Origin: Candidatus Latescibacterota bacterium
GTDB lineage: Bacteria; Latescibacterota; UBA2968; UBA8231
Direction of reading: 5' to 3'
DNA: 64,000 nucleotides
Assembly (NCBI GenBank): GCA_965223905.1
Contig: CBDCXV010000010.1
Location: forward strand, 2,048,001-2,112,000
The stretch's first letter is position 1, and every line of letters starts with the position of its first letter. This document shows, in pieces, positions 1,014-6,427 of this stretch. The notes under the pieces are model-generated. The model saw only the letters and a program-made list of their open reading frames with translations, was not told the origin of the DNA and ran no database searches. Made by a program: the position numbers and the translations under genes.

Positions 1014-4000
1014 TCATCGGGCTTCAACCCGTTTTGTCGACGTCTCGTCTGGCAGCGAAGCGATCACCTGCAGGGCGCCGCGCATCGGCGAGCATATGCT
1101 CTTACCCACGCCCCGGTGAGGCCGCATTCGGGTGCCACCGATCGCCGTCTCGACGCCAGCGAGCAGTATGCGCTTGAAGCGCTCTTCACCGGTAAACTGG
1201 TACGCCGCAGCGACCCCTTTGAGAATCCGCATATCGGCGGCACCGTCCACGATCGACTTCGGGCAGCAGGTGTAACGAAAGGAGCAGCTTTCCGGCACCC
1301 ACATGGTTTCGATGCAGTAGTCGGCTGCCCTGATGATCGCACCGGTCACTCTGGCATCTCCGGTGGCCTCGTGAAAGCGCTTGAGCCCGACCATCAGGAC
1401 GCCAACCATGAAGCCCGCGTTGCCGGTGTGCCGGGGCGGATCGCAGAAGCAGTGACCGGGGACCATAAGCCGGTCCCAGCCACCCGACGAACGCTGCCTC
1501 TCAAGCACGCGGTCGACGATAATGCGCCCCGCGTTCAGGAACACGCGCCGTCCGGTGGCGCGGTAGGCGGCGGACAGGTGAATCAGGTGCCAGCCGCACT
1601 CGCGACAGTTGGTGAAGTCGTAATCGTTTACCATGTCGCCGATCAGGGTTTCAGAGACGGCGATAGCGCTGTCGCGGATTCTGCGGTCGCCGGTCAGCAG
1701 GGAGTGGAGGAACGGGCCTTCGACCCAGGTGTGCGAAGGCATCGTAAGCCCCGAGAACATGGCCGATTCCCTGTAACCGTCGGGGTAATACCCGCCGACG
1801 TGACCGACGCAATGCAGGTACTGTGCATCCTTCGGTATCGGACCGCCATCGGCGTGGCACGTGTCGACGTCGACGAGGTGGCTCGCCGCTTCGTCTGCCC
1901 AGCGAAAGAACGACACGTCACCTCCGCGAATGAACTCCTGCAGGAAACACCACGGGGTATCGTACTCCATGTTGCCCCAGTTGTATTTTCGCTCTCCGAA
2001 CCAGTCTCCGAAGTTGAGCATGCCGTACGCGCGCGTAGTCTGCCTGTCCTCTTCGTAGGCGTCGCGGGCCGCTGCCACCCACTCCTCGTATTCCGGATAG
2101 GGAGACGGGTTCTTGGGCGGGAAACGGGTCCAGGCGTCGCTGTCGTTGAAGTGCGACAGGGGGGCGCGGTAGATGGGAGGAGAGGCCACGGCGTCGGCGA
2201 GGTCTGCAGCCTCGTCCTGTCCGTAGGAGATCCAAAACTCGGAGGTGCGAGAGATCCCCTTGCGAAGCTTGTAATGGCCGTCGAGCAGGTAGTAGTAAAG
2301 CCGGTCTTCCAGCTCACCGCCTCGCGGGTAGCGCGATGAATCCAAGGACGGAAGTACCTCGACGACGATCGAATTGGCCGCGAGAGTCAGCGCCTTGGGG
2401 TAATTCTGCCAGAAATCGCGGATGGCTACTGACACGCTCCCTCGATCACCGGTGACGGATGCAGCCCCGTTGCTCCTGCGGCCGCCAGCTACCCTCTGCG
2501 CGCGCCTGCGCGCGCCGCTCGCCTCGTACGAATCGAAGCGGTTGTCGTCGAGCTGTTCGATTCGTGCACAGGCAGCGCGCGAGTGCCTTCCCTTGCTCTG
2601 TAATACCGGCGCGTTGCCGACCTCGACGGGGATGCAGAGCGACAGCGACTGGACCCGCTCGAAGTCGAGATCGGACACGTCGTTCACGACAGTGTGCTCA
2701 ACACGAACGCGGCGGCTGCCGGAGAAGAAATGCAGCCGGAAGACCGACCGGAGGCAAACGCGACTCCCGCGACTCCGGTGAGTCACTTCCAGGCGGATGG
2801 TAGCCCTCTGCGGGCCACTGGTTTCAACCGTCAGCGAATCGGGAGCGCCGCTGCGATAGGCGCGTCCAACGGCGTCGACGGCAGTGACCGCTGTCGCATC
2901 CCCCATCGAGCGGCTCGAGCCGTCCTGCCGTACTTCGACCAGCCCGGGGATCACGGTCCGATCGCGCGGAATGCGAACCCGGAGCGGTCCCGTCACGACC
3001 TCGACATGTCTCCTCGACGAGCGCACTCGCACTTTCCCATCGGTCTCGTTGCGCACGGACTTCCCGAATTCGACCGCGCAGTCTGAAACCCCGTCGCCCT
3101 CGTAGTCGAGCAGCGCCCACTGGATCGACCCATCGTCCCAACGGCTCTGCGCCGCCACTTGGGTCGGCACCGGGCGATTCGATGAGTCGACGACGCGAAT
3201 CGAGCCGATGTTCGAGACCGCCCCTTTTTTGAAGGGCACTCCCACGGTCACCGGCCAGGCGCGCTCACAGCTCTGGGCCACTTCGAGGGCGAAGCGGCCC
3301 TTCTCAATCTCCGAGTGTTTTCTGGATGGACGCACGCGAAAGGCACCTGAATACTGAGCCTCGAGCCGCCGCGAGCGGTCCGCGAGATCGACGTCGTACA
3401 CATAGTCGCCAGCCGCCAGATTCTCGAGCACGACCTCGTGGTTCGACAACGCGGTCCGGAGGAGCACCGTCTTCTTCTTCCCCCCCTTCAGCCCCCAGCG
3501 CAAGCGGCCCGATGCCGGGCGATTCGAGCGCCACGTGACGTAGGCGATTGGCCTCTCTCCATCGATGCGGACATCCACAGAGGGAGACGCGATTTTCAGC
3601 CTGTCGGCGGCACCACGGGGCTTCCTGTCGAGCAAAACCACGTTCTCGATTCTGCACGGACCCGAAGTTGCATTCGTCACCAACCGGATCGGCTCGCCAC
3701 CCTTGAAGGCAAACTTCTCGGGCGCGAGCAACAGGTGTAACCGGTTGTCGGGGTCCGACAGCGCAGTGCGGGCCACACACCGGTGCCCGATCCAGATGTC
3801 AACGGCTTCATCGGCGCCGGCGGCAGCGTACATCGTGAACCCGAGATAGTACCTGCCCCGCCGGTGGATGACGTCGCCAAGCTCACTCACGAGACCGGCC
3901 CGGCACACCGACGGCGGCCTGATCACGGACGCATTCGCGTATTCAGTGACCGTGTCGTTCATGAAGCCGTCCAGCCGGCAGGCGAAGGCCGGGATGACCA

Positions 4001-4073
4001 CGGCGTTTTCGAGTATTTTCTCGATCCGCCCATCACCGGACAGAGACAGCGCTTTGGGGACTTCATCCTTCAC
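1014..4073 (-). CDS. PcRGLX/YetA-like (exo-rhamnogalacturonan lyase, PL26-like) protein with extra N-terminal domains
   Basis: 1019 aa. WPVTVGVPF...PVPTQ...RWDDGSIQWALLD segment, then GMLNFGDW...WGNMEYD preceding a helical C-terminal region. Confidence 0.65.
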   Translation of the reverse strand: MKDEVPKALSLSGDGRIEKILENAVVIPAFACRLDGFMNDTVTEYANASVIRPPSVCRAGLVSELGDVIHRRGRYYLGFTMYAAAGADEAVDIWIGHRCVARTALSDPDNRLHLLLAPEKFAFKGGEPIRLVTNATSGPCRIENVVLLDRKPRGAADRLKIASPSVDVRIDGERPIAYVTWRSNRPASGRLRWGLKGGKKKTVLLRTALSNHEVVLENLAAGDYVYDVDLADRSRRLEAQYSGAFRVRPSRKHSEIEKGRFALEVAQSCERAWPVTVGVPFKKGAVSNIGSIRVVDSSNRPVPTQVAAQSRWDDGSIQWALLDYEGDGVSDCAVEFGKSVRNETDGKVRVRSSRRHVEVVTGPLRVRIPRDRTVIPGLVEVRQDGSSRSMGDATAVTAVDAVGRAYRSGAPDSLTVETSGPQRATIRLEVTHRSRGSRVCLRSVFRLHFFSGSRRVRVEHTVVNDVSDLDFERVQSLSLCIPVEVGNAPVLQSKGRHSRAACARIEQLDDNRFDSYEASGARRRAQRVAGGRRSNGAASVTGDRGSVSVAIRDFWQNYPKALTLAANSIVVEVLPSLDSSRYPRGGELEDRLYYYLLDGHYKLRKGISRTSEFWISYGQDEAADLADAVASPPIYRAPLSHFNDSDAWTRFPPKNPSPYPEYEEWVAAARDAYEEDRQTTRAYGMLNFGDWFGERKYNWGNMEYDTPWCFLQEFIRGGDVSFFRWADEAASHLVDVDTCHADGGPIPKDAQYLHCVGHVGGYYPDGYRESAMFSGLTMPSHTWVEGPFLHSLLTGDRRIRDSAIAVSETLIGDMVNDYDFTNCRECGWHLIHLSAAYRATGRRVFLNAGRIIVDRVLERQRSSGGWDRLMVPGHCFCDPPRHTGNAGFMVGVLMVGLKRFHEATGDARVTGAIIRAADYCIETMWVPESCSFRYTCCPKSIVDGAADMRILKGVAAAYQFTGEERFKRILLAGVETAIGGTRMRPHRGVGKSICSPMRGALQVIASLPDETSTKRVEAR

Positions 4074-4357
4074 TGACGGTAGTGTCCTTGCTCATGGCAC
4101 AATGCGATCGACAAGATGCGGGCGATAACATAGGGAAACGAGCGGGCATTTCGCGACACCAATCCAGTCCCCATCACAAGCGGAGACTCGATCACCTGAC
4201 GGGTCCTGTCCTGGTTGGAAGGCGACCGTCTGATTCGCCCAGGAGTGAATCCCTTGCTGCGGCGCTGAACTCCGTGTCTCATGGGCTCCAGGTTTCCAAC
4301 TCCTGCCACGTCGAGTTTGAGAAGTTGGTCGAAGCACCACCCCGAAACGAGGTCTCG

Positions 4358-4386
4358 TTGACGAGGTCGCCGGCGACAGCTACATT
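4358..4386 (+). promoter_or_regulatory. Sigma70-type promoter for the Gln leader and tRNA-Gln genes
   Basis: TTGACG (4358-4363), 17-nt spacer, TACATT (4381-4386). The expected TSS (~4393-4394) coincides with the leader ATG. Confidence 0.75.
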
Positions 4387-4393
4387 GCATGGC

Positions 4394-4486
4394 ATGAGAA
4401 CGATGTATTCCTCGACCAGCACGCAGCCTCAGCGACAGCAACAGCGAATCCAGATTTCGCCGGGGCAGAGGGTGTTCTCTATCTGA
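4394..4486 (+). CDS. Gln-rich leader peptide (30 aa), probably leaderless
   Basis: MRTMYSSTSTQPQRQQQRIQISPGQRVFSI*. 7 Gln codons (6 CAG, 1 CAA), five within codons 11-17. Double stop TGA TAA. Confidence 0.7.
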   Translation: MRTMYSSTSTQPQRQQQRIQISPGQRVFSI

Positions 4487-4521
4487 TAAACAGACCGAAG
4501 ACCTGATAGTAAGGCCCCGGC
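4459..4521 (+). promoter_or_regulatory. Putative antiterminator pairing
   Basis: GCCGGGGC (4459-4466, inside the leader ORF) is the exact reverse complement of GCCCCGGC (4514-4521, 5' arm of the terminator). Confidence 0.6.
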
Positions 4522-4547
4522 AGCTGATACCTGCTGGGGCTTTTTCT
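4511..4547 (+). terminator. Intrinsic terminator (attenuator) between the leader and the tRNA genes
   Basis: AAGGCCCCGGCAG-ctgatac-CTGCTGGGGCTTT, a 13-bp stem with two G-U pairs running into a TTTTTCT tract. Ends 10 nt before the first tRNA. Confidence 0.8.
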
Positions 4548-4557
4548 ATGTACAGTT

Positions 4558-4632
4558 TGCGGCGTCGTCTAATTGGCAGGACAGCAGGCCCTGACCCTGC
4601 AGATCGAGGTTCGAATCCTCGCGCCGCAGCCA
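4558..4632 (+). tRNA. trnQ: tRNA-Gln(CUG)
   Basis: Acceptor TGCGGCG/CGCCGCA, G73, encoded CCA. Anticodon arm GCAGG-CC CTG AC-CCTGC. T-arm CGAGG-TTCGAAT-CCTCG. Position 33 is C. Confidence 0.92.
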
Positions 4633-4636
4633 GTTT

Positions 4637-4711
4637 TGGAGTGTCGTCTAATCGGCAGGACGCCGGGTTTTGGACCCGGAAATCGGGGTTCGAATCCCTG
4701 CACTCCAGCCA
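4637..4711 (+). tRNA. trnQ: tRNA-Gln(UUG)
   Basis: Acceptor TGGAGTG/CACTCCA, G73, CCA. Anticodon arm CCGGG-TT TTG GA-CCCGG. T-loop TTCGAAT. Confidence 0.95.
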
Positions 4712-4757
4712 CTCCACCTCGATGGGCGCAGGCCACAAGTAACCATGTCCTCAGCGG

Positions 4758-4895
4758 GCCGGCAACCTGCTCGATTTCGACGGCAAGGAGCTCGGCCTGG
4801 GCGTGGTCAACCCGTGCACTGAACGCGTCGAAAAGGCAAGGGATATCCGCGAGCGGGTCGAGCGTGCGCTCGAGCGCTACCCCGGAGAAAGGCTA
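4758..4895 (+). pseudogene. Fragment of a cobalamin-independent methionine synthase (MetE C-terminal-like) gene
   Basis: Translates AGNLLDFDGKELGLGVVNPCTERVEKARDIRERVERALERYPGERL. No start codon and no following PDCG motif. Confidence 0.5.
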
Positions 4896-5002
4896 CGACA
4901 ACTCACCCGCTCGACATTCTCCCCCCGGTACTTGCCTGGACCATTCCAATGCCCTTTATCTCACCAACCGTAGACACCTCAAACGCCGGGTTAGGTAAGC
5001 GA

Positions 5003-6427
5003 ATGAGCGAGATCGATCACCTGTTCGACGACGAGGGCATGAGGCGGTTTCTGGTCGACGGCTACGTCGTCGTCAAGGCCGCTATGCCGGCCGACTTCCA
5101 CGCCGGCGTTCACCGCCGTGTGGAGGAGATGTTCGAGATCCACGGCAACCTCGGCAACAACATCCTGCCACTGATCCCCGAGATTCAGCAGGTCTTCGAC
5201 CATCCCGCGGTGCACGGCGCCATGACCAGCATCCTGGGGCCGGGCTACGTCATGCACCCGCACCGCTATTGCCACCGCAACCAGCCGGGTAGCGAGGCCC
5301 AGAGCTTCCACAAGGACACCTACGAGGGAGACGAGCAGGTGAAGCACCACCGCTGTCGCTGGGCGGTGGCCTTCTACTACCCCCAGGATACCACCTTCGA
5401 CATGGGCCCCTCGGCGATTCTTCCCGGCAGCCAGTATTACGACAGCTCGGAGGCCGCCCACAAGCAGCCGGACCTGCCGTTGTGCGGCGAAGCCGGTACG
5501 GTGACGATCATCCACTTCGATCTCTGGCACCGCGCCTCGCCGAACAGCAGCGAACGGCAGCGCTACATGCTCAAGTTTCTGTTCGAGCGCCTAGGGGAGC
5601 CGACGCGGCCCTCGTGGCGCAATGCCAACCCGGATTGGGTTGCCCCCGCGGGGGATCCCGGCCAGCACCAGGGTATGTATGAGAAGTTGTGGCGGTGGAA
5701 CCGCGGCGCCTCAACGCAGAACGGCTCGCCCCGCGACGGAAATGCCATCGATGCGCTGGCGGAGGAGCTCTGCCGCGGCAAGGGGGAGCGGGAGAAACTG
5801 GATGCCGCCTATGAGCTCGGGGCCCGGGGCGCCGCCGCTCTGCCGCCGCTCGTTGAGGCGCTACAAGCCGAATCCGAGGAGGTCAGCCGCCATGCCGCTT
5901 ATGGGCTGAGCGCCGCCGGCGTGACCGCGGTACCGCAACTGATCGAAGCTCTCGGCGAGGGTGGCGACTTGGCGCGCGTCCACGCCGCCTATGCCCTGGC
6001 CGACAGCGGTCCGGCAACCTGGCAGGATCTCCTCCACGCCGACCCTTCCGCTTGCCGCGCCGCCGCCGAGGCCTTGACCGCCGCCCTCGGGGACGAATCG
6101 AGCTGGGTCAGGCGCAACGCAGCCGAGGCGCTGGGAACGATCGGCGAACCGCTGCCGGAGGCGGTGACGGCATTGGGCGACCTGCTCGGCGACGGCGAAT
6201 TCTGGATTCGCGACAATGCCGCCCGCGCCCTGGCCAAGATGGGAGCGCGTGCCGAAGGGGCTGTCGACGCCCTGGCGGCGAGATTGAACGACGACAACCG
6301 TTATGTCCGCTTCCACGCCGCGATGGCCTTGCGTCGGATCGGCACCCCGGCCGCGGAGCGGGCGCTGTTCGACAACCTGCTGACGGCGCGCTGGTGCCCG
6401 CTGACCACGGCCGAAACCCCGTACTAA
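5003..6427 (+). CDS. Phytanoyl-CoA dioxygenase (PhyH) family domain fused to HEAT/PBS-lyase repeats
   Basis: FHKD and DLWHR iron-ligand motifs, plus C-terminal repeats such as VRRNAAEALGTIG and IRDNAARALAKMG. Confidence 0.85.
   Translation: MSEIDHLFDDEGMRRFLVDGYVVVKAAMPADFHAGVHRRVEEMFEIHGNLGNNILPLIPEIQQVFDHPAVHGAMTSILGPGYVMHPHRYCHRNQPGSEAQSFHKDTYEGDEQVKHHRCRWAVAFYYPQDTTFDMGPSAILPGSQYYDSSEAAHKQPDLPLCGEAGTVTIIHFDLWHRASPNSSERQRYMLKFLFERLGEPTRPSWRNANPDWVAPAGDPGQHQGMYEKLWRWNRGASTQNGSPRDGNAIDALAEELCRGKGEREKLDAAYELGARGAAALPPLVEALQAESEEVSRHAAYGLSAAGVTAVPQLIEALGEGGDLARVHAAYALADSGPATWQDLLHADPSACRAAAEALTAALGDESSWVRRNAAEALGTIGEPLPEAVTALGDLLGDGEFWIRDNAARALAKMGARAEGAVDALAARLNDDNRYVRFHAAMALRRIGTPAAERALFDNLLTARWCPLTTAETPY

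Follow-up and report, generated by a model that had tools for sequence, protein, structure and literature searches.

A candidate glutamine-codon attenuator upstream of tRNA-Gln genes in Latescibacterota and related leaders of glnS

The trp, his, phe, leu and thr leader-peptide attenuators of enterobacteria are a textbook class of regulatory elements, and pheST of Escherichia coli, with its leader gene pheM, is an example of a leader-peptide attenuator of aminoacyl-tRNA synthetase genes. On the genes of transfer RNA (tRNA) themselves, growth-rate control and stringent control act at the promoters, and to our knowledge the regulation of tRNA genes in bacteria is global, through these two mechanisms, and does not act on single tRNA species. 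Here we describe a candidate attenuator with a run of glutamine (Gln) codons that is situated directly upstream of two tRNA-Gln genes in a genome of Candidatus Latescibacterota bacterium. The window, that is the whole stretch of DNA analysed, comprises 64,000 nucleotides (nt) of contig CBDCXV010000010.1 (positions 2,048,001 to 2,112,000), and coordinates given without a locus identifier are positions in it. G000 is the genome of the window, other G-numbers denote compared genomes, and L-numbers denote retrieved loci. The mechanism of attenuation by leader peptides is treated in PMC3082878, and PMC8079986 describes leaderless leader peptides before leuS, trpS, alaS and thrS in Streptomyces lividans.

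A full-text search of the literature, with papers in subscription journals and supplementary files outside its scope, so that earlier work is possible, revealed neither a Gln leader nor tRNA genes under a leader-peptide attenuator; the latter agrees with a preliminary description of the locus, whose author knew of no such attenuator of tRNA genes. A predicted motif in the 5' untranslated region (UTR) of the Shewanella glnS gene is listed in PMC2659441, and the part of that paper which deals with it gives no leader peptide. In PMC2965389 tRNA genes and glutamine are not mentioned. An attenuator at the E. coli tRNA genes pheU and pheV was considered as a possible precedent and rejected: strain K-12 shows a plain promoter, TTGACG...TTTAAT, about 10 nt before the tRNA, with neither a leader open reading frame (ORF) nor a terminator.

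The candidate element lies on the plus strand. It starts with a sigma-70-like promoter at 4358-4386 (TTGACG at 4358-4363, a 17-nt spacer, TACATT at 4381-4386), which is the only such site found by the promoter scan within 3500-5500, where shuffled sequences give 0.4 +/- 0.6 sites. The -10 hexamer ends 7 nt before an ATG at 4394, and thus a leaderless transcript is predicted. The ORF starting at this ATG (4394-4486) has 30 codons and a stop codon and encodes MRTMYSSTSTQPQRQQQRIQISPGQRVFSI. Seven of the 30 codons are Gln codons, six CAG and one CAA. The regulatory codons at 4424-4453 are CAG at 4424, 4430, 4436, 4442 and 4451 and CAA at 4439; the seventh Gln codon is CAG at 4466. With the A of the ATG as nucleotide 1, Gln codons start at leader nucleotides 31, 37, 43, 46, 49, 58 and 73. 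In the same numbering, the four segments capable of alternative pairing are located at approximately 49-55 (segment 1), 65-74 (segment 2), 118-130 (segment 3) and 138-150 (segment 4), and the stop codon is at 91-93.

The 1:2 hairpin (4442-4462, plus strand; GCGAA paired with UUCGC, 7-nt loop) was obtained from the RNAalifold consensus of three tRNA-linked leaders, described below, and from single-sequence folds. Its 5' strand shares bases with Gln codon 17, and its 3' strand with the antiterminator strand. The latter, segment 2 (GCCGGGGC, 4459-4466), is an exact complement of GCCCCGGC at 4514-4521 in the 5' arm of the terminator. The resulting 2:3 duplex has the energy of -21.2 kcal/mol; among 1000 dinucleotide-shuffled versions of the ORF, 2 do as well. 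The intrinsic terminator, formed by segments 3 and 4, was identified by the hairpin scan at 4511-4547. It has a stem of 13 pairs (4511-4543; eight G-C pairs) with a 7-nt loop, a T-run at 4541-4545 and the energy of about -25 kcal/mol. It is separated by 10 nt from the gene of tRNA-Gln(CUG) at 4558-4632 (plus strand; ARAGORN; Rfam tRNA 57 bits), which is followed by the gene of tRNA-Gln(UUG) at 4637-4711 (plus strand; ARAGORN; Rfam tRNA 62.9 bits). The fold of the leader as a whole is only modestly better than those of shuffles (z = -1.9; 11 of 200 shuffles are as good). The main parts had been named in the preliminary description, namely the promoter, the ATG at the predicted start of transcription, the 30-codon ORF with seven Gln codons, the 8-nt segment complementary to the terminator arm, the 13-pair U-tailed terminator and the two tRNA genes in this order, and all of them are present at the positions given.

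The upstream gene (1014-4073) is on the minus strand, and thus the hairpin is not the end of a plus-strand protein gene. An ORF of 134 amino acids with a GTG start (4082-4486) spans the intergenic region in the frame of the leader ORF and was treated as spurious. In the region 3800-5200, the tRNA family is the only one above the gathering score among the 11 Rfam matches with E up to 10. The match to His_leader (RF00514) has 20 bits against the gathering score of 49 (E 0.22-1.7); that to NsiR1 (RF02399) is considered below.

The layout coincides with that of trp/his-type attenuators: a promoter, a short ORF in which regulatory codons are clustered, alternative pairings 1:2, 2:3 and 3:4, and a U-tailed terminator before the gene, the regulatory codons being situated in or beside segment 1. 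However, known targets of such attenuators are protein-coding genes, whereas here these are tRNA genes; the amino acid here is glutamine; and the ORF is apparently leaderless. Unlike trpL, where the terminating ribosome covers segment 2, the stop codon here is located 17-25 nt past segment 2, between segments 2 and 3, so that the terminating ribosome leaves segment 2 uncovered. The leader attenuators of aminoacyl-tRNA synthetase genes also sense charged cognate tRNA through stalled ribosomes, and what they regulate is likewise a part of the charging system, as would be the case for the element considered here; those of Streptomyces have leaderless ORFs, as is predicted here; the difference is that they control the enzyme, and the candidate its tRNA substrate. 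T-boxes, too, read the charging of tRNA, on which they base the choice of terminator or antiterminator in front of aminoacyl-tRNA synthetase and amino acid genes, but they bind tRNA directly, without an ORF, and no T-box match was observed here at E up to 10. Finally, growth-rate and stringent control share with the candidate the level of action, transcription of tRNA genes, but they are global, promoter-level and not codon-specific. Attenuation of the trp type is itself known, and what would be new is the target, tRNA genes, and the specificity, glutamine.

The combination of features is rare in the genome. Gln constitutes about 4.1% of codons in long open frames, which makes the probability of at least seven Gln codons among 30 about 1.6e-4. 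On both strands of the 7.9-Mb genome, at least seven Gln codons are found in five of the 32,753 ATG-to-stop ORFs of 20-40 codons (three loci), and only at the leader locus are such ORFs followed by a terminator-like hairpin within 110 nt. Conversely, a terminator-like hairpin at most 45 nt upstream was observed at three of the 57 tRNA genes, and an ORF rich in cognate codons is added only at the Gln pair. A scan of this kind, for ORFs enriched in the amino acid of the downstream tRNA, had been proposed in the preliminary description; it singles out the Gln pair among the 57 genes. On the other hand, the suggestion that the mix of CAG and CAA codons matches the two anticodons does not hold. About 22% of Gln codons in the genome are CAA, so six CAG to one CAA is ordinary usage, and a homologous leader in genome G001 contains only CAG in front of a lone tRNA-Gln(UUG). 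Thus the argument from the codon mix is without weight.

There are four tRNA-Gln genes in G000. The housekeeping tRNA-Gln(UUG) follows ispE (TIGR00154, 204 bits) at C1:307740. The housekeeping tRNA-Gln(CUG) at C1:356273 ends a Ser-Ser-Gln operon with the promoter TTGACG...TATATT. The remaining two genes form the leader-linked pair. Since the ispE-tRNA-Gln and Ser-Ser-Gln layouts recur across the family, the additional genes are those linked to the leader. Comparison by eye shows wide sequence differences between this pair and the housekeeping copies, and BLAST found no second match to it in its own genome. Searches of phages and plasmids yielded matches to the tRNA parts only, with 79-86% identity to tRNA-Gln of actinobacteriophages and of one Streptomyces plasmid, and no match covered the leader.

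Position 33 of the leader-linked tRNA-Gln(CUG) is C instead of the near-universal U (loop CCCUGAC, 4589-4595). C33 is also present in tRNA-Gln(CUG) of the homologous locus in genome G016 (anticodon loop UCCUGAC, L007 about 1532-1538), whereas the housekeeping tRNA-Gln(CUG) and both UUG tRNAs retain U33. The single tRNA-Gln(UUG) of G001 (L008 1501-1575, minus strand) looks by eye like a chimera of two G000 tRNAs, with the acceptor and T arms of the CUG tRNA and the anticodon arm of the UUG tRNA.

Homologous leaders were found upstream of tRNA-Gln genes of the same type in two other genomes. A search with the tRNA pair retrieved 30 loci, of which 28 carry tRNA-Gln, and the leader is present at three of these 28: in G000, in G001 from the same genus, and in G016 from another genus. 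In G016, the promoter TTGACA-17-GATATT is followed after 7 nt by the ATG of an ORF encoding MRNSRLQRQQQQQQRIQSSLGQRPSMY, a hairpin with a U8 tail, tRNA-Gln(CUG) and tRNA-Gln(UUG). In G001, the promoter TTGACG-16-TACATT is followed after 8 nt by the ATG of an ORF encoding MRTREAHSGQRQQRQRVVSPPGWVCPRSLC, a hairpin with a U9 tail and a single tRNA-Gln(UUG), the last U of the tail being base 1 of the tRNA. All three leaders have the promoter, the ATGAGAA start, the in-frame Gln run in an ORF of 27-30 codons, and the pairings 1:2, 2:3 and 3:4, at the mean column identity of 68%; the leaders of G000 and G001 show no similarity to each other in a BLAST comparison. The distance from the end of the T-run to tRNA base 1 is 0-12 nt, and in G001, where the T-run reaches this base, there is no room for a separate promoter. 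At each of the three loci the leader promoter is the sole sigma-70-like site found, and a separate tRNA promoter, which according to the preliminary description would speak against attenuation, was found in none of them.

The pairings are conserved with covariation. The RNAalifold consensus of the three leaders, made up of the 1:2 hairpin and the terminator, contains 21 pairs, three of them compensatory, two of these in the 1:2 hairpin. The 2:3 helix is retained in all three, with 28 of 30 cells paired and two compensatory pairs (C-G to U-A), compared to 25-57% in slid controls. Its energy is -23.5 kcal/mol in G016 and -20.3 kcal/mol in G001, values reached by 0 and 2 of 1000 shuffles, respectively. 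Segment 2 of G016, AGUUCGUUGGGGC, is a direct repeat of the 3' arm of the terminator. Thus inspection of the relatives, suggested in the preliminary description, shows that both the Gln run and the pairings are kept in G016 and G001, with compensatory pairs, on three sequences. Genome G002, from the same genus and assembled in one contig, has neither the leader nor the leader-linked tRNA type. When the leader was compared by BLAST with 41 relatives, only G000 itself and short pieces in G016 were found; this search is too insensitive, and therefore covariance models were used.

The first model (R1) was constructed from the three tRNA-linked leaders and run on 132 genomes of the class. It yielded 27 new loci, 23 of which resemble ordinary terminators, while four contain ORFs with Gln runs followed by terminators (G053, G015, G046, G049). 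The next gene is glnS, encoding glutaminyl-tRNA synthetase (GlnRS), in G053, G049 and G046, the three loci for which ORFs were listed. A BLAST search with the G053 leader across the family, again too insensitive, matched 5 of 76 genomes and added G059 and G045. The second model (R2), made of nine leaders and run on the 76 genomes of the family (f1), has matches of at least 52 bits in 12 genomes, three tRNA-linked and nine glnS-linked. The glnS-linked leaders are found in two genera: g14 (G053, G015, G049 and G059; 4 of 31 genomes) and g16 (G046, G045, G044, G017 and G047; 5 of 8 genomes). They are located at L041 1487-1626, L042 1487-1620, L049 1490-1617, L075 698-825, L082 1490-1613 and L083 1490-1617 and, on the minus strand, at L053 1501-1620, L074 1498-1638 and L084 1501-1656. 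The G053 gene was identified as glnS by NCBIfam models NF011291 (747 bits) and TIGR00440 (617 bits); the remaining eight genes were recognised as glnS by eye, through the common N-terminal sequence. Outside f1, in a phylum sample of 151 genomes, R2 matches had 32-38 bits only, and all eight inspected were plain terminators.

The leaders of tRNA-Gln and glnS are related. They are homologous by R2 (52-105 bits), and the core CAGCGACAGCAACAGCG, encoding QRQQQR, is common to the G000 leader and the glnS leader of G053, the peptide core being QRQQQRI. They also share the imitation of the terminator 3' arm by segment 2, followed by a U-tailed terminator. The glnS leader peptides, such as MNALYQQQRQQQRIYDNARRRFLHW and MPIRQQQRQQKRLPIPVGG, contain 4-8 Gln in 19-25 codons; over all 12 homologous leaders the range is 4-9 Gln in 19-30 codons, and all 12 have terminators with energies from -19 to -26.5 kcal/mol. 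The differences are that the glnS leader occupies the gap separating a TIM-barrel gene from glnS, that its 5' UTR is about 11-36 nt long, in contrast to the leaderless start of the tRNA-linked leader, and that it has the stop codon near segment 2 and a terminator of the CCCGCUGCG type. Since Gln-run leaders precede glnS, the element is tied to the charging of Gln-tRNA. We found no Gln-specific attenuator of an aminoacyl-tRNA synthetase gene in print. The leaders of G016 and G001 together with those of glnS support the assignment to the trp/his type that was made in the preliminary description from the anatomy of a single putative attenuator.

The two placements are mutually exclusive: no genome has both. 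In G000, G001 and G002, glnS starts about 25 nt after the TIM-barrel gene and has no leader; glnS of G016 also has none; and among the 76 family genomes, those with a glnS leader lack a second strong R2 match. Three other g14 genomes, one of genus g18 and one of g9 have glnS without a Gln leader, and thus the element is patchy. An origin of the tRNA-linked leader by deletion of glnS was considered and is without support within f1, as no tRNA is found downstream of glnS in four of the nine f1 genomes with a glnS leader. In genus g19 (L010, L012-L020) tRNA-Gln(UUG) immediately follows glnS (the L010 ORF matches TIGR00440 with 581 bits), and at L011 the spacer is filled with a long (GCTGACT)n tandem repeat (about 1300-1490).

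The following mode of regulation is suggested by the sequence. Transcription would start at or next to the A of the ATG at 4394, producing a leaderless messenger RNA on which a ribosome would translate the 30-codon ORF. When charged Gln-tRNA is in short supply, the ribosome would stall in the Gln run (4424-4444) and cover segment 1, leaving segment 2 (4459-4466) free to pair with the 5' arm of the terminator (4514-4521). The terminator would be blocked, and RNA polymerase would read through into tRNA-Gln(CUG) and tRNA-Gln(UUG), to be released by RNase P. Under fast decoding, the ribosome would reach the stop codon (4484-4486), between segments 2 and 3. Segment 2 would then be recaptured by segment 1, or kept from segment 3 by the ribosome, and the 3:4 terminator would end the transcript at about 4546. 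In G000, the "off" state would be provided by the local 1:2 hairpin, which would form first, and by the terminating ribosome between segments 2 and 3. The outcome would be a feedback of the rate of CAG and CAA decoding on the supply of tRNA-Gln, where another solution would be to make more GlnRS.

The terminator persists in every full-length equilibrium fold, with or without a ribosome mask; as attenuation is kinetic, these folds are uninformative, and hence truncated folds were considered. The transcript was taken up to the terminator loop, and a ribosome was represented by a mask of -15 to +12 nt relative to the initial base of the codon in the A site. The folds of G001 and G053 are those of a textbook attenuator: 2:3 is formed only with the ribosome on a Gln codon, and neither in free RNA nor with the ribosome at the stop codon. 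In G046 and G047 2:3 is likewise formed with a stalled ribosome and not with a ribosome at the stop codon.

We believe that the element is probably a trp-type ribosome-mediated Gln-codon attenuator, related to the glnS leader, which gates an extra divergent set of tRNA-Gln. A number of observations weigh against this. In G000 and G016 the truncated folds contain 2:3 in all states, including the ribosome-free one and that with the ribosome at the stop codon, save for stalls at the two distal Gln codons (4451 and 4466 in G000), where the ribosome would shield segment 2, to the advantage of the terminator. In G000, moreover, the 1:2 hairpin is weak. As the equilibrium folds of these two genomes form 2:3 without a stall, the "off" state must be kinetic or steric, and basal termination in the window appears unexplained by the thermodynamics of the modelled folds, which is the weakest link of the argument. 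The covariation of the 2:3 helix comes from three sequences, and its score is attained by 54 of 500 column shuffles. In the five glnS leaders of g16, where 61-293 of 1000 shuffles reach it, the 2:3 pairing lacks significance. The tRNA-linked cases are three, in two genera, and are mutually related. The proposed switch presupposes translation of what would be a leaderless messenger RNA in this organism. The tRNA-Gln(CUG) with C33 may not be an ordinary decoder. Finally, the sense of adding tRNA is debatable, as it is no cure for a lack of glutamine itself.

A distinctly unlikely, speculative extension of the preferred attenuator reading gives the extra tRNAs a special role: the leader would be a sensor of codon speed for an inducible back-up set of tRNA-Gln, one member of which has C33, built by capture of a glnS attenuator and switched on exactly when the housekeeping tRNA-Gln fails, for instance when nitrogen stress sets in or when an anticodon nuclease or some other toxin directed at tRNA has cleaved or inactivated it. 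Somewhat less doubtful, while still unlikely, is that we are dealing with a relic or orphan, a copy of a glnS-type leader beside duplicated tRNA-Gln that regulates nothing, the tRNAs being expressed by constitutive read-through or from a weak promoter overlapping the hairpin. This would agree with the patchy spread (three of the 76 genomes in the family, with none detected in G002, a genome from the same genus as G000) and with the equilibrium folds of G000 and G016, which favour the antiterminator in most states and so would give mostly read-through. Weak -35- and -10-like hexamers can also be seen by eye in the hairpin loop and the T-run of G000 and G016, with about 7 of 12 positions matching, below the scan threshold. 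However, the T-run of G001 abuts tRNA base 1 and leaves no -10-like element, and no second promoter-like site was found in G000, G016 or G001. Moreover, the leaders of G000 and G001 have diverged beyond the reach of BLAST, yet retain the promoter spacing, the ATG, the Gln run and all three pairings, which is unlike a relic.

The complete unit with its own promoter and terminator could also be an independent small gene for a Gln-rich micropeptide or a small RNA (sRNA) of about 150 nt, the tRNAs being mere neighbours, or could have an added action in trans in the manner of rnTrpL and peTrpL. Attenuator RNAs and leader peptides of Sinorhizobium with functions in trans are reported in PMC6614838 and PMC7298713, and the 3' part of the leader scores 31.2 bits against NsiR1, a nitrogen-stress sRNA. 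But this match is below the gathering score of 39, lies mostly on the terminator and, among nine homologous loci, recurs weakly in G016 only (25.5 bits); the peptide is conserved mainly in the Gln run; and all 12 homologous leaders are directly upstream of a Gln-charging gene, tRNA-Gln or glnS, which indicates action in cis. We thus regard a separate gene as quite improbable. More improbable still is a real switch with an input other than stalling at Gln codons, such as a protein, a small molecule (e.g. glutamine) or arrest by the nascent peptide. The formation of 2:3 without a stalled ribosome in G000 and G016 would fit a terminator-stabilising factor, but the Rfam search at E up to 10 yielded neither a riboswitch nor a T-box, and the in-frame Gln run with its ATG is the best-conserved feature of the 12 leaders, whereas the remaining peptide varies. 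That a Gln-rich ORF, a hairpin and tRNA genes have come together by chance would be favoured by the GC-rich DNA (64% GC), in which open frames of 30 codons are no rarity and CAG is a common triplet; nevertheless, the rarity of the combination in the genome, its conservation in relatives and the homologous leaders at glnS effectively refute this reading.

Searches beyond these genomes yielded no further Gln-rich leaders. In other phyla, 28 loci show the pattern of a T-run followed by the tRNA-Gln D-arm, and all of them lack a Gln-rich leader; the one ORF with six Gln codons at L135 was rejected as spurious, as it overlaps the upstream tRNA gene. Of two pattern searches in metagenomes, the first produced no matches and the second eight, all ordinary gene ends with terminators and without tRNA. 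In metagenome-assembled genomes of Bacteroidota (L117, L124, L126, L128), in the approximately 140 nt upstream of tRNA-Gln, a conserved small ORF encoding MKHSISMPTVSFFQTNYV, which is not Gln-rich, and a U-tailed hairpin directly precede the tRNA-Gln(UUG)-tRNA-Leu(UAG) pair. In those of Acidobacteriota (L113, L116, L120), the 200 nt upstream of tRNA-Gln contain a conserved non-coding stretch without a Gln-rich ORF, and a U-tailed hairpin at its end is separated by 8 nt from tRNA-Gln(UUG).

The stretch or a part of it is contained in 14 sequencing runs, one of which is on record as RNA (X14), with contigs that cover 4781-4949 and no part of the leader. A 169-nt metatranscriptome contig of this run matches 4781-4949 exactly at a depth of about 2, too little to interpret; this spacer lies between the tRNAs and a PhyH/HEAT-like ORF (4949-6427). 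Run X13, whose kind is not on record, has a 201-nt contig across 4483-4683, which speaks neither for nor against the attenuator.

Lower R2 matches include leaders with Asn runs and terminators before aspS, e.g. MITRQNDRTHHNSANPGNNNPPAQLHVF (aspS by NF001750, 653 bits). The Asn leaders of aspS, e.g. MLTRQKDRTCNNQANSGNNNPLAPLRVF, are observed in G072, G004 and G020 (L085 about 1494-1625; L089 and L094, minus strand). Their sequences suggest that aspartyl-tRNA synthetase is regulated by the supply of Asn-tRNA, as expected if Asn-tRNA is made by transamidation. A leader rich in Thr, Lys and Asn codons, MISTGLYPNPTTKRDNNKRTARGGLRRPAEF, is followed by a terminator before asd (NF006416, 456 bits) in G080 and G081 (L086 about 1449-1603; L095, minus strand). 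Thus, judging by these candidate leaders, attenuation is common in this family.

An attenuator of tRNA genes, if true, would be a direct codon-specific feedback from the speed of decoding to the supply of the same tRNA, mediated by a small and self-contained element, and the amino acids that leader peptides are known to sense would be extended by glutamine. Given the related leader on glnS in sister genera, the same shortage has apparently been solved in two ways, by making more of the enzyme or more of the tRNA.

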